64,000 bases of DNA from Candidatus Levyibacteriota bacterium (GCA_036788695.1 DAIQMY010000001.1:150792-214791), one strand, 5' to 3'. Shown: positions 1-22,037, counted from the first letter of the stretch. The notes: generated by a model from the letters alone, not told the origin. Numbers and translations are program-made.

Positions 1-2417
1 CAGGCGGGTGGAGGACCAAACGCTCCGCCGCAGTGCGCAATTAGATTGATTTGAAATAATCCTATACTGTAATCGGGGCATACCTTATTAGTAGCAAATG
101 GATCACTTCCACTTTCAAGGTTACAGATGAGTGAGGCAGTAAGTGCGAGGTCGGGTTGGTTATTAAAATATGGAAGGAGATGTTCATATGAGCAGTATCC
201 TGTTCCTTCTTTAGGTCTGGTGCAGGCATTGGGTGACTGGGAGCCTCCGGGTCCAGCTGTGGATGCGCTTGCTTGTGCCCAGGCAGAGTTTGTTATATTT
301 ATATCAGTTTTTACGGGAAGGACAGTAAAGGTAAATGATGATGCTGCGGCGTTTCCTGAATCTGAAAGATTCCATGACAGTGTGCGGTCAGTTGTGTCAA
401 GCGTATAATTTCCCGAAGTTTTATTATCAACAAGTATAGTATTTTCAGGAATTTGATCAAAAATAATAATATCCTCTTTCCTGACGGTTGAATCTGATGT
501 GAGGGTGTAGGAGATAGTATAGGTAATTTCTCCTATCTCAGCTAATTCTGTTTGTGAAACTGTTTTTTGTAGTGTGAAGCTTGGAATGGGGTTTTGCGTT
601 GGCGGCTGTCCCACGCCTCCCCCTCCCCCTGTCCCACCACCAATTGTGGAACTGCCTGAATTATCAGAGGCAATCGTGATTACAGTCATCACGAACACAA
701 TGAAGAGTAGAATTACGCATGATACGCCAACGGTTACCCCTCCTGCGGGCGTTTTAAGAAAAGTCAGAGCCACTTGACTTACTCCTTTTTTTGCAAGCTG
801 TTGCTCTCCTTTCTTTGCTGCAGATGATGCTGCTTTTTGTGCAGCCTTTTCTCTTAGGCTTTTTCCTAAGCTTCTATTCATGTTTGAAATAGTGGAAAAA
901 GGACTTCTGTCTCGCACGCCACTTCTAAGAATTCGTGATTGCATATGAGGCTGAGAAGTAGATTGGCTAGTTTTTCCTTCCTGTTTTTGTCTTTGTTCTC
1001 GCTGACGCTTATAAAAATCGTAGCTTACGGCTCCAAGTGGGGAGATGACATATCTTCCGTATTTCCAGGTCTTACTTTGCCAAACCTTTGCGTCTCTTAT
1101 TTTTCTTAGCAGCTCAAACCTATCAAAGCCATTTGCAGCAGCTTTTGTTAATATTTTATTGATCTCTATTTTTTGGTATTCCTTTGCAGTTTTTGGTTTT
1201 CTTGCCACCTGTTGCGGTTTATTTGGGGAAGCCGTTTTTTTGGGTAGTATTTTTTTAATTCCCACAACAAAAGAAGGCGGAATTAAATGTTTTGTTTTGC
1301 TATATAAAATCCCAAGAGGCGAATATTTATACACGTTTTTGTACCACTTGAGTGTGGTTGAGGCAGTTTTTTTTGTTGCGGCTAGTGTATTTGATTTTTT
1401 TTGCACTTTTTTTGTATGCAGACTGGTATTATTTTCCTCACTTTTTTCTGTTTTTTCTTTTTTTGAGATATTTCTGTCTGAAATCCCTGCCGCAATTTTT
1501 CGACCCAATTCCCATTCTTTTAAGCGAGGACTTAGTTTGCCCATGAGAAAGCCTAATGGAGTATACTTATATATATCCACATACCCCTTTGCCCCTTTTT
1601 TTGCAGCAGCCTTGAGTGTTTGTCCTGCTTTGGATGGAGTTTTTTTTGGAGTTGTAGGCGTGGGCGGTAACGGTTGTTTTATATTTTCCGGAGACGTGAT
1701 GTTTTTATCTAAATCTTGTGTGGAGGAATCCGTTTGTGAAATTGGTGTGGAGGGTGAATTTTCCGCGGGAGAACTTTGTGCAGATGCGATTTCTTGTGGT
1801 GAATTTGTTTGAGACTGATCAGATTTTGCCTCAGACTGGGCAGTCGTGGTATTAGGTGTGTTCGGGAGCGCTGCCTTTGCAATGGTCTGAGAAGTCTTGC
1901 CTATCTGTTCTTCGTAGTTTCGGTTTTCGTTTACCCTGAATGAGCTATCCTTTTCAAAGGATATAGATGAACTTTTACCAATCCCTCTTTCATTGGTTCC
2001 AGAAGATTCAGGGGGTGTCTTTGCTGATATATTTTCTTCACTTGCGTTTTCTTTTTTGTCTTCCCCATTTTCATTGTGTACCATGTGAACATTGCTATGT
2101 TCTGAGGCGTGCTCTCTCCCATGACCATCTTTCTTGTGGTCTTCTGTTTTTTGTTGGCTCGTTTCCTCCTCCTTTTTGTCTTCGGTATTTTCAGGTTCTA
2201 ACACAAGATTTTTGGTAGCTCGGGCTTTTTCTCTTTCTAGAATATTTATTTTCTTATGTATTTCTGTTTTCTGAGTTTCTCCTTCCTTTAGCGAAAGGGT
2301 ACCGTTTGTAACTGAATCCTCTATGTTGCGCTCGTTAGTCACAAGCTGCTTGATTGAGGAGTCTATATTTTTTATCTGATCCTCGGAAGTAGGGGGTGTA
2401 TCAGAATTGTTTGCCAT
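1..2417 (-). CDS. Partial (C-terminus runs off window edge) large membrane-anchored VirB1-like cell-wall hydrolase: N-terminal charged low-complexity region with three Y-x-Y-x-P-L-G repeats, one TM helix, DUF11-like conserved-repeat beta domain, C-terminal lysozyme-like/lytic transglycosylase motif
   Basis: Manually translated minus strand from ATG (complement of 2415-2417) down to position 1 with no stop (>805 codons). It is not in the ORF track because no stop lies inside the window. TM segment VALTFLKTPAGGVTVGVSCVILLFIVFVMTVITIA. C-terminal NLESGSDPFATNKVCPDYSIGLFQIN resembles the Glu-Ser catalytic and G-L-x-Q-I-N motifs of SLT/lysozyme-like folds. Start is 19 bp downstream of the VirB4 ATPase gene on the same strand. 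Confidence 0.5.
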   Translation of the reverse strand, partial: MANNSDTPPTSEDQIKNIDSSIKQLVTNERNIEDSVTNGTLSLKEGETQKTEIHKKINILEREKARATKNLVLEPENTEDKKEEETSQQKTEDHKKDGHGREHASEHSNVHMVHNENGEDKKENASEENISAKTPPESSGTNERGIGKSSSISFEKDSSFRVNENRNYEEQIGKTSQTIAKAALPNTPNTTTAQSEAKSDQSQTNSPQEIASAQSSPAENSPSTPISQTDSSTQDLDKNITSPENIKQPLPPTPTTPKKTPSKAGQTLKAAAKKGAKGYVDIYKYTPLGFLMGKLSPRLKEWELGRKIAAGISDRNISKKEKTEKSEENNTSLHTKKVQKKSNTLAATKKTASTTLKWYKNVYKYSPLGILYSKTKHLIPPSFVVGIKKILPKKTASPNKPQQVARKPKTAKEYQKIEINKILTKAAANGFDRFELLRKIRDAKVWQSKTWKYGRYVISPLGAVSYDFYKRQREQRQKQEGKTSQSTSQPHMQSRILRSGVRDRSPFSTISNMNRSLGKSLREKAAQKAASSAAKKGEQQLAKKGVSQVALTFLKTPAGGVTVGVSCVILLFIVFVMTVITIASDNSGSSTIGGGTGGGGGVGQPPTQNPIPSFTLQKTVSQTELAEIGEITYTISYTLTSDSTVRKEDIIIFDQIPENTILVDNKTSGNYTLDTTDRTLSWNLSDSGNAAASSFTFTVLPVKTDINITNSAWAQASASTAGPGGSQSPNACTRPKEGTGYCSYEHLLPYFNNQPDLALTASLICNLESGSDPFATNKVCPDYSIGLFQINLIAHCGGAFGPPPA

Positions 2418-2435: not shown

Positions 2436-4424
2436 TCATTCATTATTCACCTTGTTGTTATCTGTAACAGGAGACGTAATAGGCTGTTGTGTAATTGGTT
2501 GAGATGCCTGTGGAGTAGGTTTCATAGCGGGTTGCGTTAGAGGCGCTTCTGTAGGAGGAGCTTCCTGTTTTGCGTCTGCTTCTTTTATGAATTGTTCTGC
2601 TGCCTGCGTATTTGTTCGTTCTGCCTCATCCAAAATGTCTTGAGGTTTAGAGGTGACCAGTTGATACTCAAAGTTTGATGCCAAAAATTGAGCTGTTAAG
2701 TGGTTTTGCCCTGCAAAAAAAAGTCCCTCTCCAACCTGCGCTGTTAGCAGAAATTGCTTTTCACCTTCTGATAAGTTAAGGGTTGAGGCGAGCGTTTCTA
2801 CCTCAGATGAGTTTTGTTTTAACAGGACCTGCATAGAAGAATTAGATAAGATTGCCTTGCCATAGTCGGAAGACAGGAAATCTTCTATGTCTTGGGTAAG
2901 CGTTGTAACTCCCAGGTAATATTTTCGTGCTCGCTTTGCAATTCCTTGCAAGAATGCAGCAGAGTCAGGATTTTTCATAAGATACCATGCCTCATCTACT
3001 ATTAATATACGTTTTTTCAATTTAGTTCTTACTCTGTTCCAAATAAAATCTAATATTACCTGCATGGCGACTGGCCTAAGAGATTCTTCAAGCTGTTTTA
3101 TTGAAAAAACGGTAAGTTGATTTTTAACATCGTAGTTAGTCTGTGAGTTTAATAGTCCTGAGAACCCTCCTTTGATGTACTTTTCTAGTCTAAACGCAAG
3201 GTCCTTGGCATCTGTTTCTTCCATATTCAAAAGTGTTTTATATAAATCCTCAAGAATGGGTGGTTCATTGCCAAAAGTTGATGGGTCAGGGATTATCCCT
3301 TTTTGCTTGTAACACAAAACGAGCGCGCGGTCTAAAATTGCCTCCTGTGTTGGAGAGAATTCACCAAGCATAATCTTGAGAAGTGAGTGGAGGGATAAAA
3401 ACTTTATTCCAAGCTGCGCTTCTGATCTGTCATCTGAAAGAAGGGCAAACGGATTAATTTTTACCTCAGAGTCTTTTGAAAAAGATATGTATTCTCCATC
3501 GAGCGCATGGCAGAGTGCTTTATATTCATCCTCAGGATCTATGATGAGAATTTCTGTGTCAAACATCATTTGACGCAACACCTCAAGCTTAACTAGAAAT
3601 GATTTTCCAGAACCAGATTTCCCAAAGACAACAGAATTTGCATTCTCAAATGAGAAGCGATCCACAATGATAAGTGAATTATTTAGCGTGTTTACTCCAT
3701 AAAAAATACCGTTTGGTTGAGATATTTCATAGGATGTGAAGGGAAACGTTGAGGCAACGGATGTAGTATCCATGTTTCGGGTAATAAATAATTTATCCTC
3801 CCCCAGGGGGAGTGTTGTTTTAAATCCGTCCTCCATTTGAAGAGTAGCGGGTTTTATAACCAGCAAGTTTGAGGCAAGTAGGGAAGTGAGTTCATTCGTT
3901 TTCTTATCAAGTTCATCAACTGTTTTTGCTGAAAGTGTAACATAGAGTCCAAATTGAAAGAATCGTTCAAGTCCCCGCGCTAACTCTTCACGCAGGGCGA
4001 TCGCGTCCTCAAGGGATGCTCGAACCTTAGGATCAGGTTCTATGCCGTTTTTCATATCTGATTCAATCGTTGCTTCCATTTCTCCAATTTTGCGTTTCAA
4101 ATTGGAAAGAATATCCCGACTTTCAACTGGGTATATAAACATAGATACGTTCATGGTTTCCTTGTAGTCTATAAGTATAGAAAGCCAATTTGGAGAAACT
4201 TCGCGCGGATAGTCAATTACAATAAACGTTCGGTAGAAAGCGTCTCCTACGCGAATATATTTAAAATCTACCTCAACGGATGAGGGAGCAAGAAGATCTA
4301 TCAGAGACACAGACCCACTTTTTAATTTCCCAACATCGTGTGTGATTTGAGGTTGTGGTGCAGATTGAGCTGTTTGTGCAGGTGCACTTTTTTCTGTTTG
4401 TTTTTTCTTTCCTAGTCCTAGCAT
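2436..4424 (-). CDS. virB4: VirB4/TrbE/CagE-family T4SS ATPase, C-terminal ATPase portion (662 aa)
   Basis: Walker A VVFGKSGSGKSF and Walker B RILIVDEAWYL (the DEAW motif is typical of VirB4). N-terminal stretch LIDLLAPSSVEVDFKYIRVGD...YPREVSPNWLSIL resembles the VirB4 middle region. Own RBS AAAGGAG 9 nt upstream of ATG. Confidence 0.8.
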   Translation of the reverse strand: MLGLGKKKQTEKSAPAQTAQSAPQPQITHDVGKLKSGSVSLIDLLAPSSVEVDFKYIRVGDAFYRTFIVIDYPREVSPNWLSILIDYKETMNVSMFIYPVESRDILSNLKRKIGEMEATIESDMKNGIEPDPKVRASLEDAIALREELARGLERFFQFGLYVTLSAKTVDELDKKTNELTSLLASNLLVIKPATLQMEDGFKTTLPLGEDKLFITRNMDTTSVASTFPFTSYEISQPNGIFYGVNTLNNSLIIVDRFSFENANSVVFGKSGSGKSFLVKLEVLRQMMFDTEILIIDPEDEYKALCHALDGEYISFSKDSEVKINPFALLSDDRSEAQLGIKFLSLHSLLKIMLGEFSPTQEAILDRALVLCYKQKGIIPDPSTFGNEPPILEDLYKTLLNMEETDAKDLAFRLEKYIKGGFSGLLNSQTNYDVKNQLTVFSIKQLEESLRPVAMQVILDFIWNRVRTKLKKRILIVDEAWYLMKNPDSAAFLQGIAKRARKYYLGVTTLTQDIEDFLSSDYGKAILSNSSMQVLLKQNSSEVETLASTLNLSEGEKQFLLTAQVGEGLFFAGQNHLTAQFLASNFEYQLVTSKPQDILDEAERTNTQAAEQFIKEADAKQEAPPTEAPLTQPAMKPTPQASQPITQQPITSPVTDNNKVNNE

Positions 4425-4463
4425 GTTTTACAATAACTCCTTTTTGTCGTATGTAGCGTATTT

Positions 4464-5078
4464 CTACACAATAATATTTTTAACGTCACTTGTTGAAAAG
4501 TCCACATTCATGCTTGTCTGGTTGAAAAGTTCAAAAAATACTCGTCCTAACTCTTCAGCCTTAATGACTCTACTGGAAAGCCCTATTCGTTCAATTTGCG
4601 TCATAACATTTGTTCTCTTGCTAGCTATTGCATCCGCGGTGCGTGCTTCGTGCGTCTTTTTACTGCCTCCTGATGTTGGCCCTAGCTCGAGCGCATTAAA
4701 TGGGATTACCACATATGTTTTTTTATCTAGCAGCCCATCTTCTTTTATAAGTTCCTGGATGAAATCCTTGTAGAGCCTTAAGTGCTCAGCCACTCGTGCG
4801 TTTTGGGTAACGGTAATTTTGTGATCAAGAGATGAGACATATGATGAGAGATCAATTCTTTTGGAAACTATCACAATCTGGATTGCAAAAGAGAGAGAAT
4901 TTAAAAGCGACATATACCCATATATACGCGCGTTTTGTTCGTCTTGGGAAAGAAGAAAAAAGTTAACAGATGAAACTTCCAGGATAGAGCATGCATTTTT
5001 TCCTTTTAAAAATACCGTGTCATCCCGAATATCTTCGATCTCAATAAAGGATTGTGTTGTCGATTTAATTTTAGCCAT
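4464..5078 (-). CDS. Stand-alone VirB4 N-terminal (CagE_TrbE_VirB-like) domain protein, 204 aa
   Basis: IEIEDIRDDTVFLKGKNACSILEVSSVNFFLLSQDEQNARIYGYMSLLNSL resembles the N-terminal domain of Gram-positive VirB4 homologs (PrgJ/TcpF/TraE type). Sits directly upstream of the ATPase part on the same strand, separated by a TAG stop and a 39-nt spacer containing an RBS. Confidence 0.5.
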   Translation of the reverse strand: MAKIKSTTQSFIEIEDIRDDTVFLKGKNACSILEVSSVNFFLLSQDEQNARIYGYMSLLNSLSFAIQIVIVSKRIDLSSYVSSLDHKITVTQNARVAEHLRLYKDFIQELIKEDGLLDKKTYVVIPFNALELGPTSGGSKKTHEARTADAIASKRTNVMTQIERIGLSSRVIKAEELGRVFFELFNQTSMNVDFSTSDVKNIIV

Positions 5079-5086
5079 GGGCAGTT

Positions 5087-6154
5087 TTATAAAGTATTTT
5101 GTGCAACTCCAAACAATTCACGTCTTAATTTTTCGCGTTGGTCTACAGATATTACTTGAATAGGTTGAGCCACTGATCCATCAAGCGTTATTCTGGTATC
5201 TTGAAACTCTTGTTTTTTTAACGTGTCCTCAAGGTGCAGGGTATATGTTCCGCTTGGAAGTGGAGTTGCGGCTCTAAAAAAACCATTTGCGTCAGTTCGG
5301 AAGGTTCGGAGTGGAACGTTTTGCGTATCAAGCACTTCCACAATGATGTGGGGGAGCGGTTTTCCTCTTGGGTCAAGTATTTTGCCTTGTAAAATATTGG
5401 CTATGTCTATGCCTCCTACAGATACTTGAGAGGGTGCCACTGGAGGGGTTATCGGTTGCGTTTCAGCTACTGCATGAGGCGTAGGAGGAACAATTTGTGA
5501 TTGAGAAGCAGAAGATTCTGTTTGGCTTGTACTTTCCTGAACAGGAGGGACTGAAGTTTCCGTATGGGGAGCAGATAATTCCCCAGACGTTCCTTCTTGC
5601 GTGTGTATGGCAGAGGCTTGCGTTGTGGGAGTTTTTTCATCGGCCTTAATAACTCTATTCGTAAATCCGCCCTGCTGTGTTGTGCCATCTTTGAAGAGGT
5701 TGCTCACGTTTTCTACTTGAGACTTCTCATCAGCATCAGGCTTAAAATAAGAACTTGCAAGCTGATTAAAAAGTTTTGCTTTTTGTACTGCTGCGCTGTC
5801 TCCTGAATTTGAGTCAGTAACGTTAGTGTGCGACGGAGGGGTAAATGTAAAGTATGGCATTTGTACTCCGTGTTTTTTGTAAATATATTGATTTTCCGCG
5901 GGAATTGCCTTAAAGAAGTTAAAAAGCATCTTATCCATAGGTCTTCCATCAATAGGCACAAACGCAAGACAAAGCCCTACGCCTCCTGAGAGAAGCATAA
6001 AGGGAAGCTTTAGTAAAAACGGAATGGGGAAAAAATAGAACAAGAGTGCAAAAACCCCGCCACCTAAAAGATATAAAAATTGTTTTACCGTAACAGATCC
6101 TATAAGCCTAAATTTAAACCCTGTAACGTCTTGGGGGATAGGATGATTTTCCAT
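5087..6154 (-). CDS. VirB3/PrgI-like small T4SS membrane protein fused to a long Ser/Thr/Pro/Gln-rich linker and a C-terminal transthyretin/carboxypeptidase-regulatory-like beta-sandwich domain
   Basis: N-terminal FKFRLIGSVTVKQFLYLLGGGVFALLFYFFPIPFLLKLPFMLLSGGVGLCLAF gives two TM helices in the VirB3/PrgI arrangement. Position immediately upstream of VirB4 in the conserved VirB3-VirB4 order. C-terminal GKILDPRGKPLPHIIVEVLD...GTYTLHLEDTL resembles a prealbumin-like fold. Confidence 0.4.
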   Translation of the reverse strand: MENHPIPQDVTGFKFRLIGSVTVKQFLYLLGGGVFALLFYFFPIPFLLKLPFMLLSGGVGLCLAFVPIDGRPMDKMLFNFFKAIPAENQYIYKKHGVQMPYFTFTPPSHTNVTDSNSGDSAAVQKAKLFNQLASSYFKPDADEKSQVENVSNLFKDGTTQQGGFTNRVIKADEKTPTTQASAIHTQEGTSGELSAPHTETSVPPVQESTSQTESSASQSQIVPPTPHAVAETQPITPPVAPSQVSVGGIDIANILQGKILDPRGKPLPHIIVEVLDTQNVPLRTFRTDANGFFRAATPLPSGTYTLHLEDTLKKQEFQDTRITLDGSVAQPIQVISVDQREKLRRELFGVAQNTL

Positions 6155-6402
6155 ATATTAAAGGGTATAACGTGAAACATATGCTTTCAAGATTATCAAA
6201 ATAGGTCAAAAAAAAGACATTCTGTGCGTAACGTGAAAAGCGCTGTGCTTTCTTGACACGCGCTTATGTTTTGCCGTACCATAAATAAAGAGAATGTTGT
6301 AAGCAGTTTGTTATTTTGTAGTTAAGAAGAATAGTGAAAAGAAGCCTATAATGCGAGTAAGATAATGATAAAAGAAATACTTTCTAAAATTATTTCATAA
6401 CT

Positions 6403-6741
6403 ATGGAATTTACACCGGAAAAGAAAAAAACAGTAGAGAAAATGATAGTTGATTCAATGATAGACGCTGTAGGGGCAGGAATTGTTCCTGAAGAAGAGCT
6501 TACTAGTATCTCTGATTTTGTTTTAGCTCGAATAGATGCCATAAACAATGAAGATGAATTGGTTATTTTTCTTGTTGAACTTTCTCAAAAATGGTCATTT
6601 TTCTTACCGATTGAACGCTTCATTGAAGGTGAGGCGAAAGAGGCGGAAGATAAAAAGTCAGTAGATAAAGCAGAAAATCTTATAAAGGATGGACAAATAG
6701 ATCAAGCGCTGCAGGTTTTAAAGGCAGCAGAGGGAGCATGA
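6403..6741 (+). CDS. Small acidic hypothetical protein (112 aa), translationally coupled to the next gene
   Basis: ORF with ATG start; its stop overlaps the start of the 645-aa ORF (6741/6743). Highly acidic composition. Confidence 0.45.
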   Translation: MEFTPEKKKTVEKMIVDSMIDAVGAGIVPEEELTSISDFVLARIDAINNEDELVIFLVELSQKWSFFLPIERFIEGEAKEAEDKKSVDKAENLIKDGQIDQALQVLKAAEGA

Positions 6742-6742
6742 T

Positions 6743-8680
6743 ATGACAAAGAATATACAAACAGAGGCAGCAGCGCGTGCCATAACAAATAGAACAGAGC
6801 TAACTCCGGCTGAGCAGCAAGATAAACAAAAACAGCTCGCAGCAGGTGCTGCAAAAAGAAGTCTTGAAAAAAGACGTGAGGCCCTGGGTGGAGACGACCA
6901 TGGCTTTATGGAGGGAATGAGGAGTACAAAAAAAGAGACACTTGATGTGCCAACCGCAGATGATGCAGAGAAGGTAATTGAATCAGCCGCCAATACTCCT
7001 GAACAAAAAAGCGAAGCAAAAAAAATAGACGCAGTTTTGCGAGCAGTATTCTCAGGAGATAAAGCCTATCTTGAGGAACATCAGAATGCAACAAGTGACT
7101 CGTTAATTGCTCCTATTCGTGAAATGATGAGAAGGGACCCTGCCTTCAAAGAACTAGCAGATGCGATTGACAATAGTCCTGCTTCTTTCAATGAATGGGT
7201 TCAATTTGTGGCAGAGCAGTTAGATTCGGGGCGTAATCCAGGGGATAACAGGTTTGTGGACAATCTTCAGGCAAAGTATAAATCGTTTATGGAGAAGGAC
7301 AGAGAGGAATCGGGGGATAAGACGGCAATTCGAAGAAAGCTTGATATGCAAAAAGCAAAAGAAGACGCGCTAAACGATCAGTATCAGGCAAATATAAAAG
7401 AAGTTGAAGAAAATCGAGCACGAAAAGAATCTTTTTCTGATATGGATAACGGTGCGGGAAAAGAATTAAAGGAGATAACTGATACGGTTGCTAGTGAGGC
7501 TGAAGATCGGAAGCGGATAGAGGAGGAGATTGCGGAATTAAGAGTTGATAAAGCAAGAGTAGATGAAGATGCGCATAGCACTAATTTGTCAATAAGAAGA
7601 GAAGCCGAGCAAACACTGCGTCGATTGAGGACGAATATTTCTGATAAAGAAAAAGAGCTTGCCCCATTTAAAAAAAATATTGTTAAAAAAGAATCATTGA
7701 CTTCTGAAATGAAAGGATTAAATAATACGCACGAAAAACTTTTGCAAGATCAAGGAAGTCTTGCAACTCAAATTGAAACGATTCGTGAGGAGCGAACAAA
7801 GATAGAGAAACAATTAAATATCGGAGGCGGTAAGGATAAGGAGGACTTCGTAGGGGACCTGCGAGCTATTATGGGTGATGCTTTTCGGGACACTATGATT
7901 GCCAGATTTGATGCACAGCAGGCAGGCGTTAGTGAATCCTTTAAGGAGCTTATTGCGGAAGCACGCGATCCTCACGTTAAGGCAGCACTGGAGCAGCTGC
8001 AAGATAGTCATAATCGTTGGAAGGATTGGGATTCGGTCTGGAAAACAAAGCTGAAGGTTCCTTATGGTCGCAAGGAAGAGCCAAGTATGCAAAAGGATCT
8101 TATGAAGGAAGATGTAGACATTTTGCTTAAAGAGGGTCCTGAGAGTTTTATGAGAAGATTTCTTAGCCACAAGATGGATCCGGATACGAAAAACGCAGGT
8201 AATCCTCAGGGAATGATGTACTCTAAAGAAAAGATAGACGAACTCATTTCAGATAAAGACTTTATGGCTGCGGTACAGCCAAAGGCTGCCGGGTTATTAG
8301 TTCGCCAGGCAGTACAGACAAACGTATTGTCTGAGCGTCAAATGGCTGAGTTGAGAGATACAGAATGGGGAATGAGTGCGATTGAAAGTGCGCTGATGTT
8401 GGATAAGACTGCAGTTGAGAGCGGTAGAGCGCATCAGGCAATAGACTACATAAAGAAGCATCCAAAATTTGCGTGGTGGATGCTTCTTACGTTTTTATGG
8501 CCACCAGCAGGATTATTCGTTGCGGGAGTATACGCAGGTAAAGAGGTTGTGTCTGGAGTATTTCCGGGTAAAAATAAAGAGCATGCCGGAGGGCATGATA
8601 AAAAGCCTGTGAATGTTGAGCCTCCTCCATCACCTCACAATGAGCAGCAGTTTGCGCCTAGCCTCGCACCTGCGCATTAA
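6743..8680 (+). CDS. Large charged coiled-coil protein (645 aa) with a hydrophobic segment near the C-terminus (HPKFAWWMLLTFLWPPAGLFVAGVYAG); unknown function
   Basis: Long ORF with K/E/R/D/Q-rich, helical-looking sequence and a C-terminal TM helix. No recognisable catalytic motif. Confidence 0.55.
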   Translation: MTKNIQTEAAARAITNRTELTPAEQQDKQKQLAAGAAKRSLEKRREALGGDDHGFMEGMRSTKKETLDVPTADDAEKVIESAANTPEQKSEAKKIDAVLRAVFSGDKAYLEEHQNATSDSLIAPIREMMRRDPAFKELADAIDNSPASFNEWVQFVAEQLDSGRNPGDNRFVDNLQAKYKSFMEKDREESGDKTAIRRKLDMQKAKEDALNDQYQANIKEVEENRARKESFSDMDNGAGKELKEITDTVASEAEDRKRIEEEIAELRVDKARVDEDAHSTNLSIRREAEQTLRRLRTNISDKEKELAPFKKNIVKKESLTSEMKGLNNTHEKLLQDQGSLATQIETIREERTKIEKQLNIGGGKDKEDFVGDLRAIMGDAFRDTMIARFDAQQAGVSESFKELIAEARDPHVKAALEQLQDSHNRWKDWDSVWKTKLKVPYGRKEEPSMQKDLMKEDVDILLKEGPESFMRRFLSHKMDPDTKNAGNPQGMMYSKEKIDELISDKDFMAAVQPKAAGLLVRQAVQTNVLSERQMAELRDTEWGMSAIESALMLDKTAVESGRAHQAIDYIKKHPKFAWWMLLTFLWPPAGLFVAGVYAGKEVVSGVFPGKNKEHAGGHDKKPVNVEPPPSPHNEQQFAPSLAPAH

Positions 8681-8699
8681 GGAAAAGTGGGAAGTATGA

Positions 8700-9056
8700 T
8701 TAGAGTTTCTCTTCTGTTTTCGGAGGACTTGTGAGTTGGTTTAAGTCAACGCCCGTGAATTGAGACAAAAGGTTTATCATGACAAATGACATCATGATAA
8801 TAACTAGCCCAATAATTGCATAGGTAAGTCTTTTTCTGGCATTGTCCACTTTTTCTTTATCCCCTGAAGACGTTACATATTGGTAGCCTGAGTAAATGAT
8901 AAGAAATACGGCAACTACGCCGGATAGGACTAGTGCTGCATTAATTACATTTTGTAAGACAATCCATATGCAGGATATGGTAGCTACTCCTGTTGCATCT
9001 GGAATTCCCTCCAATGGTCTTACACATTCTCCCCAATCTTCTGTGAATAAATCCAT
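8700..9056 (-). CDS. T4SS pilin-like small membrane protein (VirB2/TrbC-type, T4SS_pilin family), paralog 3
   Basis: Two hydrophobic helices flanking the loop YVTSSGDKEKVDNARKRLTYAIIGLVII. The same architecture and motif recur in three neighbouring genes. Confidence 0.6.
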   Translation of the reverse strand: MDLFTEDWGECVRPLEGIPDATGVATISCIWIVLQNVINAALVLSGVVAVFLIIYSGYQYVTSSGDKEKVDNARKRLTYAIIGLVIIMMSFVMINLLSQFTGVDLNQLTSPPKTEEKL

Positions 9057-9121
9057 GTGCTATTAGCATAAAACAAATGTGAAAGATAATTCAAGAGGAA
9101 AGGTGTAAGTAGGCACCGTAC

Positions 9122-9577
9122 TTATTGGCTAGTATTCCGAAGTGTAGGTATTTCAAACCCAGAAGTAAGGTAATTACCGGTAAAGATGTAAAGGACTGCG
9201 TTTATGATAACGTAGGCTAATATAACTATGATAAGTCCTACAATTGCTGCAACTATTGTAGAGCGTGCAGTATCAATTTTTCCTTTATCTCCGCCTGAAA
9301 GAATCCATCGAACGCCTCCATACAAAAGGAAAATAAGGGATAAAACAATTCCGATAATTATAATAGCGTTTATAATAAAAGCAATCAGTTGATTTGGTGA
9401 CACGTCAATATTCCCGATTGATTTAGGTGACTTAATTATTATAGGTTCAATATTCTGAGCAAATGCAGGGGTCGCTAGAACGGACATAAGAAGTGAGCCA
9501 AATGATACTGAGGCGGTATTTATTATTTTTTGCAAACTCATATGATTAATTAGAACATGTTTTTTTTTGCATGTCAA
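9122..9577 (-). CDS. T4SS pilin-like small membrane protein, paralog 2, with an N-terminal Sec-type signal peptide
   Basis: Core IFLLYGGVRWILSGGDKGKIDTARSTIVAAIVGLIIVIL. The track start at 9577 is TTG. An in-frame ATG at 9541 gives MSLQKIINTASVSFGSLLMSVLATPAFA-QN, a classic signal peptide. Confidence 0.6.
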   Translation of the reverse strand: MTCKKKHVLINHMSLQKIINTASVSFGSLLMSVLATPAFAQNIEPIIIKSPKSIGNIDVSPNQLIAFIINAIIIIGIVLSLIFLLYGGVRWILSGGDKGKIDTARSTIVAAIVGLIIVILAYVIINAVLYIFTGNYLTSGFEIPTLRNTSQ

Positions 9578-9583
9578 TAAGCG

Positions 9584-9913
9584 TTATTGTTTTCCTATGT
9601 CTTGTAGGACTTGCGCGCCCAGGAGTAAGCCCACAATTCTTACAATGATAAAGGATAGGAGGATAATAATAAGCCCTACTATTGCGTACGTGATAGTGCG
9701 TCTTGCGCGGTCCAGTTTTGCCTTATCTCCTTGAGACGTAATCCATAAAACTCCCGCGTATAAAAGAAAAATAAGAGACGCAATAATGCCTATGGTAACG
9801 AACAGTCCTAATCCGAAGTTAATAATATCAGATGGGGCGTTTGCGCCTGATGGGATATTTTCAGGTGTTTGCACGTCTCCATATCCGGGTATTTTTAAAG
9901 ATAAGTATTTCAT
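9584..9913 (-). CDS. T4SS pilin-like small membrane protein, paralog 1
   Basis: Core IFLLYAGVLWITSQGDKAKLDRARRTITYAIVGLIIILL. Its ATG directly abuts the stop of the upstream pilin-like frame (TAATATG). Confidence 0.6.
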   Translation of the reverse strand: MKYLSLKIPGYGDVQTPENIPSGANAPSDIINFGLGLFVTIGIIASLIFLLYAGVLWITSQGDKAKLDRARRTITYAIVGLIIILLSFIIVRIVGLLLGAQVLQDIGKQ

Positions 9914-9914
9914 A

Positions 9915-10401
9915 TTATTGAAAGCCTGGTATTCGCAAAATGTTTATACCTATAAACTCAAGTATCGCAATTGAGAGAATAATAAATATTAGTCCAGTGA
10001 TTGCTGCGGTTATTTGTTCCCGTGCTTGACCCACTTTTTCTTTGTTTCCCGCAGATGTCATGATGGTATATCCTGCGCGGATAAAGAAAAGGAGAGCTGC
10101 AACTCCTCCGATTGAGAGTACTATGGTAAAAATATCACGTACAAAAAATTGAGGCTCTGTGCTGATCTTTATTCCAAGTGCTGTTGGAATTTTTTTGCAA
10201 TACCCAGTTGTCTGATCTATATCTTGCTTATCGCAAAGCGCTCGGGGTTGAGACCATGGAATTGCAACTCCTAACTCTTTGCCATATGGATCTTTTATTG
10301 CTGTGCCTATTGTTCCTGTTTCTCCGCCGCTTGCTATTGTAAGCGGAATAAAGTAGTAGGTGAAATCGTTTTGTTCGCAGGTAAAAGTGTTTCCATTTTT
10401 T
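9915..10401 (-). CDS. Fourth T4SS pilin-like domain in an open frame of ~160 codons that lacks any ATG/GTG/TTG start; likely the C-terminal domain of a fusion with the upstream secreted protein via a -1 shift at an A8 tract, or else a pseudogene
   Basis: Manual translation of the minus strand gives ...KKIPTALGIKISTEPQFFVRDIFTIVLSIGGVAALLFFIRAGYTIMTSAGNKEKVGQAREQITAAITGLIFIILSIAILEFIGINILRIPGFQ*, which matches the pilin paralogs. The frame stays open upstream to a TAA at about 10423 and overlaps the last 20 codons of the 419-aa ORF in the -1 frame. The only in-frame Met lies inside the TM helix. Confidence 0.45.
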
Positions 10402-11557
10402 TTAAGTCCCGGCCGTCTTTAATTTTAAGAAGATATTTTCCTTCTGTAAGGGTTCCAAATACATATCCGTCGGCATCTTTTGATTCTGAACTGAGGAACA
10501 TATCTATCTCTCCTGTTCCATCTTCGGGTTTGGGGTTTGCGTTTACAACTAAGCATCTAGGCGCACTCTTGTAATCATTATCCAACCCTTCAACCTGTAG
10601 CCAATAATCATTATAAATATTTGAGTCCTTGCCTGATTTTATGTTTCTACCTTTTAAAATAATGGGTAGGGTGAATCCATTTTTTGTACTATTTGTATTT
10701 AGATTTGTGACAGTTTCCGCTTTTGGCTTTATAATCTCAGGGTAAAAGTGAGTTACGTAAAATACCGCATCCGCCTTTACATCATCAGGGCTTACGCTTT
10801 TACTATCTTTCCCCTGCGATAAATATACATGGTATGTTTTTCCTGCGTGAAACCAATCTCCAGAAGTGAACTGATTCGTTTCAGTACAGTCTTCTTTAAG
10901 TGTTTTTTCTCCATCCCCACACAACTTGCTTAGTATAACTATTCCGTCTCTTGGTTGCGCTTCTTGCCAGTCATCCTCCCCACAATCTTGAGGTTTACTT
11001 TTGAGGCAGTAGAAATATTTTGCGTTTTTAGTAGGATTGGAAAGATTAATAAATCGAACAGAAATATAAGGAACGCTTTCATCTATAAATGCTTGATTCG
11101 TTTTTGGATTTTTTGGAAGTCCTCTTGTTGCGCCCAGTCCCTTACAGATATAGTAAGATTCAGTAGTAATGCAGTCACTCAGGTTTGGATTATTAACTTC
11201 ATCTAAAAATCTGTCTTCGTCAGTTTTTCCCTCCTCGTTTGCACATGTACTTTCTGTAAAAAGAGTTGAATCATCAATTGTAATGGTAGATGTTCCTAAA
11301 GGTTTTTGTATTTTGCGATTTTGTGCCGGAATATCAAAGTACCTGCATAAATTTGTGCAGATATTGTCATCAGGGGGGACAAATGAGATGTCCTTTAAGG
11401 GCACTTCTTTCCCTTTAATAGTTTTAGTTACCAATTTTTGGGAAGAACATTCGCTTAGGTCTTGTCCGCTGAATTGAACACCCGTGGCGTATGTTGTAGC
11501 TGTTGTGAAAATTAAAAATAAGAAGAAGACAGGCAATAGCAGGAAAGTTTTCTTCAT
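10334..11557 (-). CDS. Secreted Cys-rich protein (about 407 aa from the internal ATG; the track ORF starts at a TTG at 11593); candidate pilus-associated adhesin
   Basis: Signal peptide MKKTFLLLPVFFLFLIFTTATTYATG. Numerous Cys residues suggest disulfide-rich extracellular domains. The 3' end contains the A8 tract (plus-strand T run 10396-10403) where a -1 shift joins the downstream pilin frame. Confidence 0.55.
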   Translation of the reverse strand: MKKTFLLLPVFFLFLIFTTATTYATGVQFSGQDLSECSSQKLVTKTIKGKEVPLKDISFVPPDDNICTNLCRYFDIPAQNRKIQKPLGTSTITIDDSTLFTESTCANEEGKTDEDRFLDEVNNPNLSDCITTESYYICKGLGATRGLPKNPKTNQAFIDESVPYISVRFINLSNPTKNAKYFYCLKSKPQDCGEDDWQEAQPRDGIVILSKLCGDGEKTLKEDCTETNQFTSGDWFHAGKTYHVYLSQGKDSKSVSPDDVKADAVFYVTHFYPEIIKPKAETVTNLNTNSTKNGFTLPIILKGRNIKSGKDSNIYNDYWLQVEGLDNDYKSAPRCLVVNANPKPEDGTGEIDMFLSSESKDADGYVFGTLTEGKYLLKIKDGRDLKKMETLLPANKTISPTTLFRLQ

Positions 11558-11598
11558 ATAACTATCATAGGAGGTTTTTTGCTCTAAAGTCAAGAAAT

Positions 11599-12930
11599 TT
11601 ATGGAAGAAAGCGGTATCCTCTACCTTTTATAGTAGTAAGATGTGTCGGGTTGTTTGGGTCTTCTTCAATCTTTCGTCTGACTCTGTATATGATTTGATC
11701 AAGTGCTTGGTCGGTCACGCCCTCACGTGTCTTTTCATCTGACCATACAGACTCTATTATTTCCTCTTTTGTACACACCTTATCAGTGTTTTGAATTAAA
11801 AACCGTAACAGTTTAAATTCTGATGGTGAGAGTATATCCGTTAGCGACTCGTTCCCTGCTTTTATTTCTTGAGTATCTGTGTCAAATGTTATTTTCTCAG
11901 TTGCGGGGTGTGGAAAGTGGGACAGATTTTTTTCAAATAAAGGAATTTGAATTTCTCCGTTCTGAACAAGATAAGAGTATTGCAGAAAAGAATCTTTTGG
12001 AGTATCTTTTGGGGATTTGAGAAGTATTTTTTGCTCAATTGGTATAAGCGAATTCCATATTTCAGTCAAAGCTCCTTGAATTGCAGCTTTTGAAAGTAAA
12101 AAAGTTGCCATATCCGCGTGCTTTCCCTCTTGAGCAAGCACAGTTTCAAGGGCTATTCTGGATAATTTTCCATGTCCCCCTGTAAGTTTTATAATTTCTT
12201 TGTGCGTTGCAGGACTAACCGTTCTTCCGCTCGTTTTCTCAAGATAGGCAAAGCGGAAAGCATTCGCCTCAGCGTCACAAAGGGGAAGGAAAACGTGGTT
12301 TCCTACGACAAATTCATAGAAATCCCCGTATATGCTAGGTTCCAATAACTCCTCAAGCGGTCGTTCTAGGGAGAAAACGCAAGAAAATCTATATTTTGCC
12401 CTATTTCGTAAAACATGCAAATCTGTAAAAAAAGAAGAACTTATCTGTGGGAAATAGGTGTCAAATCTATCAAAGAGAAGAACTACGGTTAGCTCCCGCT
12501 CTATAGACAAATAGTCTATGGCACGTTTTAACGCCTGAAAAAGTATTAATTCATCCTGAAAAGAAATCGCCTCCTTGAGAATGTTGTTTACCGCCTCTTG
12601 TTCTTCCTCCATCTTCCGTTCTGAAAAAGAGTAGGAAAGGGAGATAAGAATAAATTTTATTAGTTCGTAAAAATTTCTTCCCTTAATCTCTGATAGATCC
12701 ATATAGACAAAGTGGTACCATTTATAGTTTTCTCCTAGGTGAAGAACGCGCAAGGGATTATTGTAGGCTAAAAGCCGCAAGACGTTTGAACGACCAACTC
12801 CAGGAAGGCCGACAACTTGCGCGGAGTTTCCCTTTTGAACGTATGAGAGAATTTTATCTATCTCATGTGTCCTGGAGGATGGAGGATAAAGAGAGTCAAA
12901 ATGCATGGGTTCTGAGGCTAAAGTAGTCAT
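11599..12930 (-). CDS. Putative transcriptional regulator: N-terminal P-loop NTPase-like domain (AAA/STAND-like) plus C-terminal OmpR/PhoB-type winged-helix DNA-binding domain
   Basis: P-loop-like VVGLPGVGRSNVL. C-terminus TKEEIIESVWSDEKTREGVTDQALDQIIYRVRRKIEEDPNNPTHLTTIKGRGYRF matches the trans_reg_C winged-helix signature (W...V.V.I.RLR.K...........I.TV.G.GYR). Confidence 0.55.
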   Translation of the reverse strand: MTTLASEPMHFDSLYPPSSRTHEIDKILSYVQKGNSAQVVGLPGVGRSNVLRLLAYNNPLRVLHLGENYKWYHFVYMDLSEIKGRNFYELIKFILISLSYSFSERKMEEEQEAVNNILKEAISFQDELILFQALKRAIDYLSIERELTVVLLFDRFDTYFPQISSSFFTDLHVLRNRAKYRFSCVFSLERPLEELLEPSIYGDFYEFVVGNHVFLPLCDAEANAFRFAYLEKTSGRTVSPATHKEIIKLTGGHGKLSRIALETVLAQEGKHADMATFLLSKAAIQGALTEIWNSLIPIEQKILLKSPKDTPKDSFLQYSYLVQNGEIQIPLFEKNLSHFPHPATEKITFDTDTQEIKAGNESLTDILSPSEFKLLRFLIQNTDKVCTKEEIIESVWSDEKTREGVTDQALDQIIYRVRRKIEEDPNNPTHLTTIKGRGYRFLP

Positions 12931-13003
12931 ATGTTAGTTAATTGTAAGCTTCTTATAAGGATAATATCAAGTTTGAAGGTGCATCTTCCCCTATACTTGC
13001 CTC

Positions 13004-16000
13004 ATGAATGAAAGATTTTTGCCACAAGAATTGACAGCAGGAAGGGTATCTTCTACACTTAATGTAAGGAGTACTATGCCAGAGCCACAAAAAGAAGAAC
13101 CTATTGTTCTCAAAAAAAATGAAGTGCATCCTCCCAGGATAAGTAATTCTCCACGACCAGAATCAATACAAGAGCTTATGCAAAGTCAGGCAGAACGTGA
13201 GGCGGCACGAGCCATAATGGAAGAGGCTCGGAAGCAAGGAAAAACATTATCTGAGGATGAAAAAAAAATGATTCTTGCTTCAGGAATTAAATTTCCTATT
13301 TTTGGAGGCGCTGATGTGCCAGAAAATGATTCTTATAATCCAGACAGTGAAGACAGTGAAGAAAACCAGGGCGGAGAGGTTATAAGAAGGGGTTTTGAGC
13401 TGCGACCCCCACGTGATCACGCCCATAACCCGCAACTCCTTGATGAGATAGAAAAATTTAATAGGGTAGCTGAGTTGGGTGTTGATTTTGATGATCTCAA
13501 ACGCGAGGCAGATAAAATCATGAATCTTCAGTCGTTAGACCCAAACAATCCGATTACATCTGAGCAAAGACAAGACCTTATAAGACAGCTTTCTAAGAAA
13601 GGACAAGAGATTGCGGAAGCAAGAATGAATAATCCAGACAGGTTTGGTTTTTACCTTGAAACCCAAGACTTACGAGAATTGGATGATGATCCTATAGCAT
13701 GGCTAGATTCTCAATTTGGTCAAATATACAATTTGTCTAGATTGGGGAATGAGTTAGATTCTCCCGCTTTGCAGCGTGCGCAGACAGAAGTACAAGAAGC
13801 ATCTGCATATCTCCTGAAGAGATTTGGAAAATTCAGAAAAGAGGGGATTAAAAATGCCAAAGACGTTGATCAGGCAAATCAGGATAGTAAGTTGTTGTTG
13901 GAATTTAATGAAACATTTATGATCAGGTTAAACCTCATTTTTGCCAGAACAGCAATTGATCAAAGAAATATGGAGCAAATACAGGGCGCAGTTGGAAGAC
14001 TAAGAACTTTAGGTTTTGCCGGAGCCCAAGCTTTTGACAATGGAGCAGTTGGTGCTATGTATAACCGTATGGAGGCGATGCTTGGGAATTTGCGGCTTGC
14101 AGAAGGTGGGCGTGAGCATCACCTTAATCCTATGTCTTTAAACAAGTTGCAGGAAAGAACTATAGACGAGCAGATAAAACTTGCAAAAGAAGGCGTAGGT
14201 ATATTTGCCGATAGATATAAGGATATCCTGTTGGATCCAAAGAAACGGTTGAATGCTGATGACGTATTAAAACGCGAGATAATCAGGTCTGTTAGAACAG
14301 CATACGATATTTTAGTTGTATCCCAGAGAGTAGCAATAGTTGCCGCTCGCGGTAATTATAGAGGAGACAGGCAGCAGTACTTCTCTGATAATGGTGGTGC
14401 TTTTGCTGTATTTAACTTGGAACAAATGACTATTAATAAGTGGGACCTATTAAATCATGAGGAGCAGGAGTTCTTTGATTTTCTCAAGCTTGACATGGCT
14501 ATTAATAATAAAAAAGGAGTAGATGTATCCGGGTTGACGCGTGAACAATTATTAGACTTAGGAGGAAGGCTATTTAGGGATCTGTATGTAGTTCCTGATT
14601 TTTATTCATCATCCTGGAGAATGAATGGAATGAGGGATCAGTTGGGGAGGGTAATTCAGTATAGGGCTGAAAACGACAAAATGATTGAGAAGTTGATAGA
14701 AGATCCTAATTTTACTCCCGCTGATGAAAGACTAGTGGAGTTGCAACGGCAAATGAGGGCAGACAAAGAAAGTTATATGAAGGCATGGGATGAGCGTAAT
14801 CCTTCAAATAGAATATTGCCGGGAGATCGCGAAATTGCGCAAAGACAATTTTCCCGCCAAATGTTTGAGAAAGTCTTAACCCGTGACCAAAGAGAGCTAT
14901 GCCTGAGAGTTCTGACACCGGACGACATGATGGATGTTATAAATGTTGCAATAAAAAAAGCCGGTACGCAGTTAGGAAAAGAGGTTGGAGACTTTGCTCT
15001 GTTTGTACAGTTGAAGCAAAGTTTGGGACATTTAGGACATCGCTCTGGATCACCGGAAGATATACGTAAAGAGACACGTAACTACAGGACTGAAGTTTGG
15101 GAAAAGATTCAAAAATTTAAAACAGAGGATGTTATACAGTTGATAAGAGGTCGGGCACGACCAGATATATACACGGAAGACTACAATAACTTGCGTGAGT
15201 TATATACGCTTTTTGAGAAAAATGATCCAGAATTGGGAGTACTAACTAATGAGCAGAAAGAATTGCAAAAAACGGGGGGCATAGAAGCATTTCATACATA
15301 TGATAGGTTTATTGAGAAATACGGTTCAGTAATTCAGGCAGTACGTCAAGACGCAATGCGAAACAGCTTAACTGGTCCAGAGCAGGTAGATATGACCAAT
15401 CTAAACCCTCGACAGATTGAAATGGTTAACAGAATGCTAGGGAATGGAGCAGCGGTTACTCTCCAAAATATCTATAAGGACATGAACAAATTTATAAATC
15501 GTCACGGTATTGTCAAGGAACTTGTGACAAGCCATAAGTACATAGATCTTTACAATAGAGTAATAAACGTAGAGGATGTAATGCTTGACACATTAGAATC
15601 AATACCTGAAAACGCGAGCTTCCAGAAGTTATCAGATTATTTCACTGCAGAGTCAGGAGCAGATGCCTTAAAACGAAACTTTAATGATATAGGAAATGCG
15701 GTGAATGCAGGGAACGCATTTATTAAATTTATCACAACTGAAGACAAGGAAGGAAGATTTAAAGAATCCAAAGTTATGAAAGGCGCTGTGGAGGCGTATA
15801 ATGGTCGCGGAAACGGTGCTGAAGTTATGCGATTTACCTATGGAACAGAATTATTATATTCTCTGCAGTACTATTGGGTTAATATGTTGCGTTTAGGTGC
15901 ACTTCCGTTAAGAAAGCCAACCTCAGTGAAGCAGGAGCATTATGGAATTGGAGCAAAATCCTTAACCAGAGAAGATGTCCGTGGAGATTTGGATCATCAC

Positions 16001-17932: not shown

Positions 17933-18029
17933 AGGGCAGGTAGTTTTAGTATGGCTCAAAAAGCAACAAAAAGTCAAGGAATATATAAGTAGGGGTTTTT
18001 ATTGACAACTATATATAAAACAGGGTATC

Positions 18030-19373: not shown

Positions 19374-19375
19374 TT

Positions 19376-22027: not shown

Positions 22028-22037
22028 TAAAACACAT

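Follow-up and report, generated by a model that had tools for sequence, protein, structure and literature searches.

The type IV secretion systems (T4SS) of Patescibacteria are MPF-FATA-like machines with TrsD, PrgI and arrays of pilins, have no relaxase and often lie near dnaA (Quinonero-Coronel et al. 2025, PMC12102498). TrsD is their commonest component, and homologues of VirB6 and VirB8 are scarce in the Microgenomatia (PMC12102498). Southlakia needs the T4SS in order to grow on its host (PMC10633639); patescibacterial T4SSs are mostly without a relaxase, and protein export has been proposed for them (PMC10633639; PMC12102498). In this work we describe a two-gene module of such a locus, found in a 64,000-nucleotide stretch of the genome of Candidatus Levybacteria (GCA_036788695.1, DAIQMY010000001.1:150792-214791; the whole of this stretch is called the window below), ultra-small bacteria of the Candidate Phyla Radiation (CPR). 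Its first gene encodes a small acidic protein of 112 amino acids (p112) and its second a charged helical protein of 645 amino acids (p645); another charged protein, of 1063 amino acids (p1063), is encoded further along the same locus.

As in the T4SSs reported for Saccharimonadia and for the phylum at large (PMC10633639; PMC12102498), the locus has VirB4, a separate TrsD, PrgI/VirB3, an array of divergent VirB2-like pilins, no relaxase within it and, in relatives, a position near dnaA. The p112-p645 pair is mentioned in neither of the two papers that describe the T4SS (PMC10633639; PMC12102498), and the terms 'coiled', 'Levybacter' and 'unknown function' do not occur in the text of the latter. 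The gene table of the Southlakia cluster includes the large helical proteins SEML1_0011 and SEML1_0013, but no pair of a small and a tail-anchored protein. The machine is a known one; the pair belongs, by the tests run here, to no known family. It is a real, selected and lineage-specific two-gene module which is functionally tied to the T4SS.

Divergent alleles between near-identical flanks

The main new result is that three blocks of the locus, the first of which holds the p112-p645 operon, occur as unalignable alleles in strains whose flanking sequences are 96-98% identical. This allelic-cassette behaviour of the T4SS accessory module is unusual. The blocks and the genes of p112, p645 and p1063 are the following.

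6331-8721: hypervariable block 1, with the 5' untranslated region, the genes of p112 and p645 and the final codons of the neighbouring pilin gene
6403-6741, plus strand: p112, 112 aa, small acidic protein, isoelectric point (pI) 4.35
6743-8680, plus strand: p645, 645 aa, all-alpha, the fastest-evolving gene in the T4SS locus
10162-11493: hypervariable block 2, the signal-peptide-bearing N-terminal outer domain of a pilin fusion
13004-16195, plus strand: p1063, the second charged protein, 1063 aa, with a hydrophobic stretch at aa 1032-1060 and a tail of 3-4 residues
13096 to about 17231: hypervariable block 3, p1063 minus its first 30 codons and the C-terminal 60% of a polytopic membrane protein

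The window forms a species-level group with two other loci, L010 and L004, within which TrsD is 100% identical, the regulator of the locus 98-99%, and VirB4 99% (window versus L010 and versus the part covered in L004). By blastn, the window and L004 share 95.8% nucleotide identity at 2700-6330 and 11494-13095, 92-96% at 17232-26100 and 89% in the pilins, and the conserved stretches of L010 and L004 are 98.4%, 96.2% and 98.6% identical. The same three blocks are unalignable in window versus L004 and in L010 versus L004. Between the two haplotypes the encoded proteins share 38-39% identity for p112, 21-23% for p645 and 34-35% for p1063; the L004-type p645 gives no BLASTP match, yet matches the family profile with E = 6e-24. 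At the left edge of block 1 the sequences are identical up to about position 6215, patchily similar to about 6335 and then without similarity, which resumes on the right at about 8722, within the 3' end of the pilin gene. More distant genomes, with flanks of 79-84% identity, carry p645 alleles of 68-75% and p1063 alleles of 84-90% identity, so that allele identity is decoupled from the genome background.

An assembly chimera was excluded as the cause of this mosaic, since the divergent L004-type allele was assembled in the same flanks independently from at least five sequencing runs. A diversity-generating retroelement was excluded as well, there being no direct or inverted repeats of at least 40 nt in positions 1-27000 of the window and whole genes differing between the alleles. 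No close relative of the L004-type allele was found among the sampled representatives. The blocks reassort, as L010 combines window-type p112-p645, p1063 and polytopic genes with L004-type pilA (96%) and PrgI (99%). For pilA (8700-9056), the identity of the window to L010 or L004 is 80-82%, compared with 96% between window and L010 in the rest of the locus; the pilA alleles of L010 and L004 are 96% identical, and pilin alleles are thus seen to reassort independently of the p112-p645 cassette. We propose that the population maintains distinct allele cassettes, which strains would swap by homologous recombination within the conserved flanks.

The pilA groups of Pseudomonas aeruginosa are allelic cassettes with group-specific accessory genes. 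The present locus resembles them in having deeply divergent alleles with sharp breakpoints between conserved flanks of near-identical strains, and differs in that the swapped genes include ones for proteins without signal peptides and in that three blocks are affected within one T4SS locus.

The composition of block 3 bears on a possible role in self-recognition or entry exclusion, in which the variable proteins would set which T4SS-bearing cells engage each other, and in which p645 and p1063 would co-vary with that part of the polytopic, VirB6-like protein which is itself variable. In conjugative elements, exclusion proteins act with the VirB6-like TraG/ConG, and in the L004 haplotype it is indeed the C-terminal 60% of the polytopic 589-aa protein that is replaced together with p1063 and the pair. 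Known exclusion proteins, however, are small, belong to the envelope and carry signal or lipoprotein sequences; p645 lacks both a signal peptide and an LPXTG motif, and nothing links a 645-aa coiled-coil protein made mostly in the cytoplasm to such a role; we give this explanation the slightest chance of those considered.

The pilin-fusion gene itself (9914-11593, minus strand) is split in the window by an indel at about 10396-10403, one base short in the A8 run, into a 419-aa open reading frame (ORF) and an out-of-frame C-terminal T4SS-pilin domain, and its orthologue in L010 is intact (547 aa). Such a split may reflect slipped-strand phase variation, a pseudogene or a mistake in the assembly.

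The gene pair and its secretion locus

Both ORFs of the pair were confirmed at the coordinates and with the lengths that a sequence-only reading of the window had given them. p112 is acidic, as had been claimed, with 25 D+E versus 13 K+R residues, and has no hydrophobic segment. p645 is likewise as described there, highly charged (220 of 645 residues are D, E, K or R, 34%; pI 5.65) and without a signal peptide or any N-terminal hydrophobic stretch in a hydropathy check; it is free of cysteine. The elements around the junction and start of the operon, with the motifs of the small protein, are given below.

6253-6282, plus strand: promoter-like site, sigma-70-like, TTGACA-18 nt-TACCAT (consensus scan)
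6729-6735, plus strand: Shine-Dalgarno-like GAGGGAG for p645, in the 3' end of p112, 7 nt 5' of the ATG
within p112 (family alignment): motifs FVLxxID, FLxxLxxKWxFF and, in the C-terminal helix, G-x-(I/V)-(D/E)-x-A-L

The two genes had been read as overlapping at 6741/6743, which is wrong: the p112 stop TGA (6739-6741) is separated from the p645 ATG at 6743 by a single spacer base, 6742. In orthologues the junctions range from -4 nt (an ATGA overlap) to a gap of +13 nt, and it is from these tight junctions that translational coupling appears plausible. The promoter-like site sits in the 248-bp divergent intergenic region common to p112 and the PrgI/TrsD/VirB4 operon, and in the alignment of window, L010 and L004 its -35 box and most of its -10 box are retained across the diverging alleles. 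In the same region (6215-6335) GTGCTTTCTTGACA, which holds the -35 box, and GTTGTTATTTTG are retained in both allele classes; these two sequences may be operator sites for the locus regulator at 11599-12930. An Rfam scan found no regulatory RNA in the operon region.

Homology searches place the proteins in small families. A word-indexed search of 5.8 billion proteins returned four relatives of p645, 68-100% identical, one of them a protein identical to p645 and recorded in a Candidatus Levybacteria metagenome-assembled genome, and a profile search run exhaustively over 1.84 billion cluster representatives returned 21, which are 593-695 aa long save for two likely fragments (89 and 308 aa). The p112 family comprises 33 clusters (86-141 aa), and p1063 has eight relatives with identities down to 30%. 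None of the three proteins has an above-threshold match in Pfam, NCBIfam, PHROGs or PADLOC, and Pfam scans of 22 p645 and 28 p112 family members gave nothing consistent; p112 reaches 24 bits against DUF2150 (PF09920; cut-off 28), a family without known function, to which eight of the 28 members match below threshold. No Pfam or NCBIfam match to VirB6, VirB8/PrgL, VirB10, VirD4, PrgF, TrsJ or other T4SS structural models was obtained for p112, p645, p1063 or the 22 p645 members. Against PDB sequences, the p645 profile finds coiled-coil noise only (E 5e-4 or weaker; IpaB, MakE, Nhe L1, LINE-1 ORF1p, spike HR1 and keratins among the matches) and the p1063 profile no relative, and the p112-family profile finds nothing at E < 0.1 among all PDB chains, those of IcmS, IcmW and LvgA included.

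In the sequence-only reading the shared tail anchor implied a kinship of p645 and p1063; hhalign gives it a probability of 0.4%, and paralogy of the two is excluded. An SMC/Rad50 identity for p645 was rejected as well, its match to TIGR02168 reaching 18.6 bits against a cut-off of 567 and covering the coiled-coil region only; p645 has no Walker A motif, and Foldseek TM-scores are at most 0.2. A phage tape-measure identity was rejected on the lack of any PHROGs match and on a best Foldseek hit in BFVD with E 8e-3 and TM at most 0.15, and is also unsupported because the neighbours are T4SS and not tail genes. The absence of an N-terminal hydrophobic segment and of an LPXTG-like motif excludes surface anchoring of the PrgA type. 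The same reading had held that homology to a well-known unrelated family, such as SMC-like or tape-measure proteins, would make the co-location with the T4SS incidental; no homology to these or to another known family was found, and the reading is not refuted by that check.

The genes that surround the pair and p1063 are listed here.

2436-6154, minus strand: T4SS core operon VirB4-TrsD-PrgI, divergent from p112-p645
2436-4424, minus strand: VirB4-like ATPase of the CD1110 type, 662 aa, 426 bits
4464-5078, minus strand: separate TrsD/TraC-like protein, 204 aa
5087-6154, minus strand: PrgI/VirB3-like protein fused to CarboxypepD_reg (Pfam scan)
8700-9913, minus strand: three VirB2-like T4SS pilins (PF18895), convergent with p645
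9914-11593, minus strand: larger pilin-fusion gene, orthologues 466-626 aa, C-terminal T4SS_pilin domain
11599-12930, minus strand: ATPase and winged-helix regulator
16208-17977, minus strand: polytopic 589-aa membrane protein, candidate VirB6 analogue

Judged by this gene content, the locus is a conserved chromosomal, MPF-FATA-like T4SS of predicted pilus-forming type. T4SS genes do surround the pair, as the sequence-only reading had it, namely VirB4, TrsD, PrgI/VirB3 and a VirB2-like pilin array. Its description as an island was not borne out, because the guanine-cytosine content is as in the surroundings and relatives carry the locus next to dnaA/dnaN.

In ten Levybacteria-type loci (window, L001, L004-L007 and L009-L012) the pair lies without exception between the PrgI-like gene and the pilin array, and the p1063 and polytopic genes lie past the regulator. 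A TrsD-seeded metagenome scan gave 80 loci, with TrsD 37-82% identical to that of the window over the matched stretch, of which 32 were long enough for analysis; in these a p112 homologue with a charged, C-terminally hydrophobic partner was recognised only where TrsD is at least 53% identical. The large partners measure 578-703 aa in L024, L025, L032 and L034, with a short 249-aa form in L028-L030. In L032 and L034 the pair is inverted yet still between pilins and PrgI, and the large partner is no longer matched by the p645 family profile. The link to the T4SS is strengthened by this strict synteny, which survives inversion.

The same data speak to the view of p645 as an incidental neighbour, a general envelope or cytoskeletal coiled-coil protein that happens to lie beside a T4SS near the replication origin, for instance a factor in cell division or cell shape, or a tail-anchored protein that associates with ribosomes as ElaB does. 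The scans of p645 turned up no T4SS family signature, and in relatives the locus is core-chromosomal and next to dnaA/dnaN, where housekeeping genes cluster. Against this, the pair stays between PrgI and the pilins, even inverted, down to a TrsD identity of 53%, it disappears with the locus type in more distant Patescibacteria, and housekeeping proteins are not swapped for 21-39%-identical alleles between 98%-identical strains. We therefore allow this view a small chance only.

Several further observations concern the locus. The N-terminal region of a canonical VirB4 is encoded here as the separate TrsD/TraC-like gene upstream of VirB4, and no other protein of the locus is as well conserved as TrsD, which is 78-100% identical in all the loci. 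Downstream of VirB4, a large ORF (3-2417, minus strand) runs off the start of the window and has no NCBIfam match; its orthologues, of 814-1258 aa, are highly variable in size among relatives. About 13 kb from the T4SS locus, an 810-aa protein (31206-33638, minus strand) carries coupling-protein signatures of the VirD4/TraD type, with a Pfam TraG-D_C match of 26 bits (cut-off 22) and weak NCBIfam matches to TraD and to VirD4-like proteins of the CD1115 family, and is a possible substrate receptor, should the system export proteins. L012 carries two inserted 23S_rRNA_IVP genes (PF05635, four-helix bundle; 9449-9829 and 17089-17466), which adjoin the p112 and p1063 genes near the edges of two variable blocks, and in L024 the pair is separated from PrgI by a transposase-like ORF and small PIN-like ORFs. 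A locus scan with the narrower family alignment returned three species genomes only, two titled Levyibacteriota and one labelled uncultured gammaproteobacterium. A 75%-identical copy of the whole locus, L007 (CAYMYC010000002.1), is titled 'uncultured Gammaproteobacteria bacterium', and from its gene content, which is that of Levybacteria, the public label looks wrong.

Architecture and evolutionary rates of p645

The structure of p645 was predicted with AlphaFold2 from a 22-sequence alignment, an earlier model from four close sequences being too poor (predicted local distance difference test score, pLDDT, 52). The resulting model has a mean pLDDT of 73 and a predicted template-modelling score of 0.44, and together with the alignments gives the following division.

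p645 aa 1-20: low-confidence N-terminus in the AlphaFold2 model, followed by helices to about aa 184
6743-7828, plus strand: variable N-terminal half, aa 1-362 (alignments, dN/dS)
7313-7960, plus strand: predicted antiparallel coiled-coil hairpins, helices at aa 191-232, 237-276, 282-360 and 369-406
7829-8467, plus strand: conserved helical C-terminal domain, aa 363-575 (alignments, dN/dS 0.04-0.15)
8468-8539, plus strand: uncharged segment FAWWMLLTFLWPPAGLFVAGVYAG, aa 576-599, predicted weak membrane anchor
8540-8677, plus strand: variable Pro/His/Lys-rich C-terminal tail, 46 aa, pLDDT < 40

The N-terminal half thus holds the low-confidence N-terminus, with a short conserved motif at aa 8-15 (E-A-x-x-R-A-I/V-T/G), a helical region and the first coiled-coil hairpin; pLDDT exceeds 90 at aa 200-350. 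The C-terminal domain carries the motifs DPHxKA, RW, GPE, NPxTG and WG and is modelled from about aa 410 to 575 as helical and including a small beta-hairpin, with a pLDDT of about 80 at aa 450-560; fold searches found no specific match to it. At its C-terminus the model has a marginally hydrophobic, Pro/Gly-containing segment.

Rates were calculated as the ratio of non-synonymous (dN) to synonymous (dS) substitutions by the method of Nei and Gojobori. Both p112 and p645 are under purifying selection, with a dN/dS of 0.12-0.26 for p112. Between window and L010, p645 has the highest value in the locus, 0.48, the range for VirB4, the regulator, p1063 and the polytopic protein being 0.02-0.09; at greater distance it is 0.17-0.18. 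By region, dN/dS is 0.16-1.0 for aa 1-362 and 0.0-0.15 for aa 363-599, and FAWWMLLTFLWPPAGLFVAGVYAG has no non-synonymous change at all versus L010 and L007. At aa 281-362, dN (0.23) and dS (0.29) are both raised versus L010, which points to a small recombined segment. The identity of the N-terminal half to orthologues, 19-88%, is always below that of the C-terminal half, and p112 is always more conserved than either. In the collinear loci L005 and L011, TrsD is 98% identical, the regulator 91%, p112 88% and p645 55%.

A variable N-terminus joined to a conserved C-terminus, in a cassette replaced with sharp breakpoints, is also what would be expected of a polymorphic toxin with its immunity protein, an arrangement of the kind found in the X-Tfe/X-Tfi pairs of Xanthomonas. 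Here p645 would be a toxin delivered by the T4SS, its N-terminal toxic part variable (pore-forming, for example) and its C-terminal delivery domain conserved, and p112, encoded just 5' of it, would be the cognate cytoplasmic immunity protein; the weak profile matches to the coiled coils of the pore-formers or translocators IpaB, MakE and Nhe L1 (E about 5e-4) would fit. These matches are nevertheless generic coiled-coil noise, in one list with keratins, LINE-1 ORF1p and spike HR1. An immunity protein would normally diversify along with its toxin domain, whereas p112 keeps 54-62% identity in comparisons that give 19-30% for the N-terminal half of p645; no enzymatic or toxin domain was found in any member of the p645 family, and length and architecture are uniform. 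A toxin-immunity pair is in our view very unlikely.

The C-terminal segment FAWWMLLTFLWPPAGLFVAGVYAG, 24 residues long, is the sole uncharged stretch of p645, has a central Pro-Pro and a Gly-rich second half, and is directly preceded by basic KKHPK and followed by Lys. A script found the segment in 20 of the 22 aligned members and the alignment shows it in the other two; it measures 16-26 uncharged residues (51 in one member), with central Pro or Pro-Pro, a Gly-rich second half, a basic cluster ahead of it, a Lys behind it and a conserved position and character. The tail after it is 5-46 aa long in most members and longer in two. The model shows aa 574-606 as helical, with confidence below 50 beyond aa 587. 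No 19-residue window of the segment reaches a Kyte-Doolittle value of 1.6. The rough insertion energy is +3.4 for p645 (family median +2.9) and +1.3 for p1063, compared with -1.5 to -4.3 for the pilins and -5.7 for the polytopic protein of the same locus; these are position-independent sums of Hessa-type values, and are indicative only. The ORF of p1063 (13004-16195) ends in the peptide originally quoted for it and has its hydrophobic stretch at aa 1032-1060. Both proteins fall under the definition of tail-anchored proteins, having no signal peptide and one segment in the C-terminal 65-70 residues (PMC12981334), and in the 64 kb they are the only charged proteins with a single C-terminal hydrophobic segment. 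The tail anchor of the sequence-only reading corresponds to a single conserved segment within the last 70 residues of p645, of marginal hydrophobicity.

Such an architecture would also suit a structural role, in which p645 and, separately, p1063 are tail-anchored cytoplasmic scaffolds whose C-terminal segment is inserted post-translationally into the cell's own membrane. With their large helical N-terminal parts kept in the cytoplasm under the T4SS, they would serve as stator, spacer or substrate-docking platform and replace components not found here (VirB8, VirB10, a locus-encoded coupling protein), with p112 as assembly partner or regulator. The absence of a signal peptide and the single hydrophobic segment after a basic cluster in the last 70 residues are in keeping with this, as are the strict synteny, single copy and constant length of the p645 family and the membrane-proximal position of the conserved domain near the presumed VirB4, TrsD and PrgI. 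Coiled-coil spacers tolerate rapid sequence change. With homologues of VirB6 and VirB8 scarce in Microgenomatia (PMC12102498), unrecognised substitutes are to be expected. Weighing on the other side, a purely cytoplasmic structural part would not usually have its alleles swapped wholesale in step with an extracellular pilin-fusion domain, the true membrane helices encoded in the locus are far more hydrophobic than the anchor of p645, and no similarity to any T4SS structural family was found. We consider a scaffold the main, if rather unlikely, alternative.

TssL and DotU (IcmH), of about 200-260 aa, are tail-anchored inner-membrane components of type VI and type IVB secretion systems. p645 would share with them a cytoplasmic helical domain and a single C-terminal helix at the membrane in the setting of a secretion machine; unlike p645 they have no long coiled coils and belong to a recognisable Pfam family, to which p645 has no such match.

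A putative chaperone or adaptor and its proposed substrate

Of the readings weighed here, the one we consider most plausible, if still tentative, is that p112 is a chaperone or adaptor and p645 a membrane-targeted T4SS substrate. The sequence-only reading had proposed a chaperone with a secreted substrate, a filament pair, or stalk or scaffold components. Replacement of the operon together with the extracellular domain of the pilin fusion in near-identical strains favours an exposed or substrate protein and tilts the choice towards the first of these over the filament and the stalk or scaffold. The layout of p645 is substrate-like in that its N-terminal half is variable and its C-terminal domain and segment are constrained (dN/dS 0.0-0.15). 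Known T4SS secretion signals are C-terminal, and moderate hydrophobicity is documented in transmembrane effectors of T4SS and type III secretion systems (T3SS) that escape targeting by the signal recognition particle (PMC12981334). Being more conserved than either half of p645, p112 fits a chaperone acting on a conserved element better than an immunity protein. Also in keeping with export are the general lack of a relaxase in patescibacterial T4SSs, for which protein export has been proposed (PMC10633639; PMC12102498), and the VirD4/TraD-like ATPase encoded at 31206-33638.

In this scheme p112 and p645 would be translated from a single mRNA, and p112 would bind p645 in the cytoplasm as a dedicated chaperone or adaptor and prevent mis-targeting of its weakly hydrophobic C-terminal segment or its N-terminal motif. 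The domain at aa 363-575 would be recognised by the conserved secretion machinery, p645 would be delivered to the interface of cell and host, where the C-terminal segment would insert into a membrane, and the fast-evolving coiled-coil half may then meet host-specific surroundings.

Two groups of described systems come close to this. The T4SS transmembrane effectors found with the small acidic adaptors IcmS/IcmW/LvgA (PMC12981334) share with p645 the T4SS context and a moderately hydrophobic segment in the last 70 residues; as in T4SS effector/adaptor systems, the conserved part of p645 is C-terminal, where the signals lie, and p112 is small, acidic and cytoplasmic. The IcmS/IcmW/LvgA systems differ in being diderm T4A/T4B machines of intracellular pathogens of eukaryotes, with effector repertoires that are scattered where p645 is fixed in the locus, and p112 has only its general character in common with IcmS, IcmW, LvgA and VirE1, no sequence homology having been found.

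The second group are the T3SS translocator operons. In ipgC-ipaB, sicA-sipB and lcrH-yopB, the gene of a class II chaperone stands directly 5' of that of a large coiled-coil translocator with hydrophobic helices. The order of p112 and p645 mirrors this layout, but no homology supports the likeness and no T3SS genes were found in the window. The class II chaperones are built of tetratricopeptide repeats and measure about 150-170 aa, whereas p112 has 112 aa and Pfam scans of 28 family members gave no tetratricopeptide-repeat family; the translocators have two central transmembrane helices, p645 a single C-terminal segment. The matches to IpaB being generic coiled-coil similarity, they do not make p645 its homologue.

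A number of points weigh against a chaperone or adaptor with its substrate. The pair is single-copy, nearly constant in length (593-695 aa for the large protein) and fixed in position, which resembles a machine part more than a typical set of effectors. In many proteins the arms of coiled coils are weakly constrained and change quickly, and part of the rate excess of p645 therefore needs no contact with a host. With pLDDT below 50 beyond aa 587 and two central prolines, the segment may not span a membrane. Neither sequence nor fold comparison matched the proteins to a known chaperone or effector family, and the evidence for cassette replacement comes from a single divergent haplotype, the L004 type, compared with two genomes of the other. 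The binding of p112 to p645, the export, the membrane insertion and any contact with a host are inferred.

A more specific version, which we hold to be unlikely, is that p645 is a chaperoned tail-anchored coiled-coil protein planted in the host membrane by the pilus-bearing machine as translocon, tether or conduit. In that case the allele cassettes, exchanged together with an adhesin-like domain at the pilus tip, would set which hosts can be exploited.

Much of bacterial diversity belongs to the Patescibacteria. The T4SS is essential in their sole genetically tractable member (PMC10633639). p645 and p1063 add two candidate families of charged, C-terminally anchored proteins, one of them with a chaperone-like partner. 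As scaffolds they would stand in for the VirB8/VirB10-type parts that are missing in Microgenomatia; as cargo or specificity factors they would open a way to the study of host range and of how epibiotic parasitism works. The cassette pattern, for its part, clearly illustrates recombination between strains of a lineage that is uncultivated.

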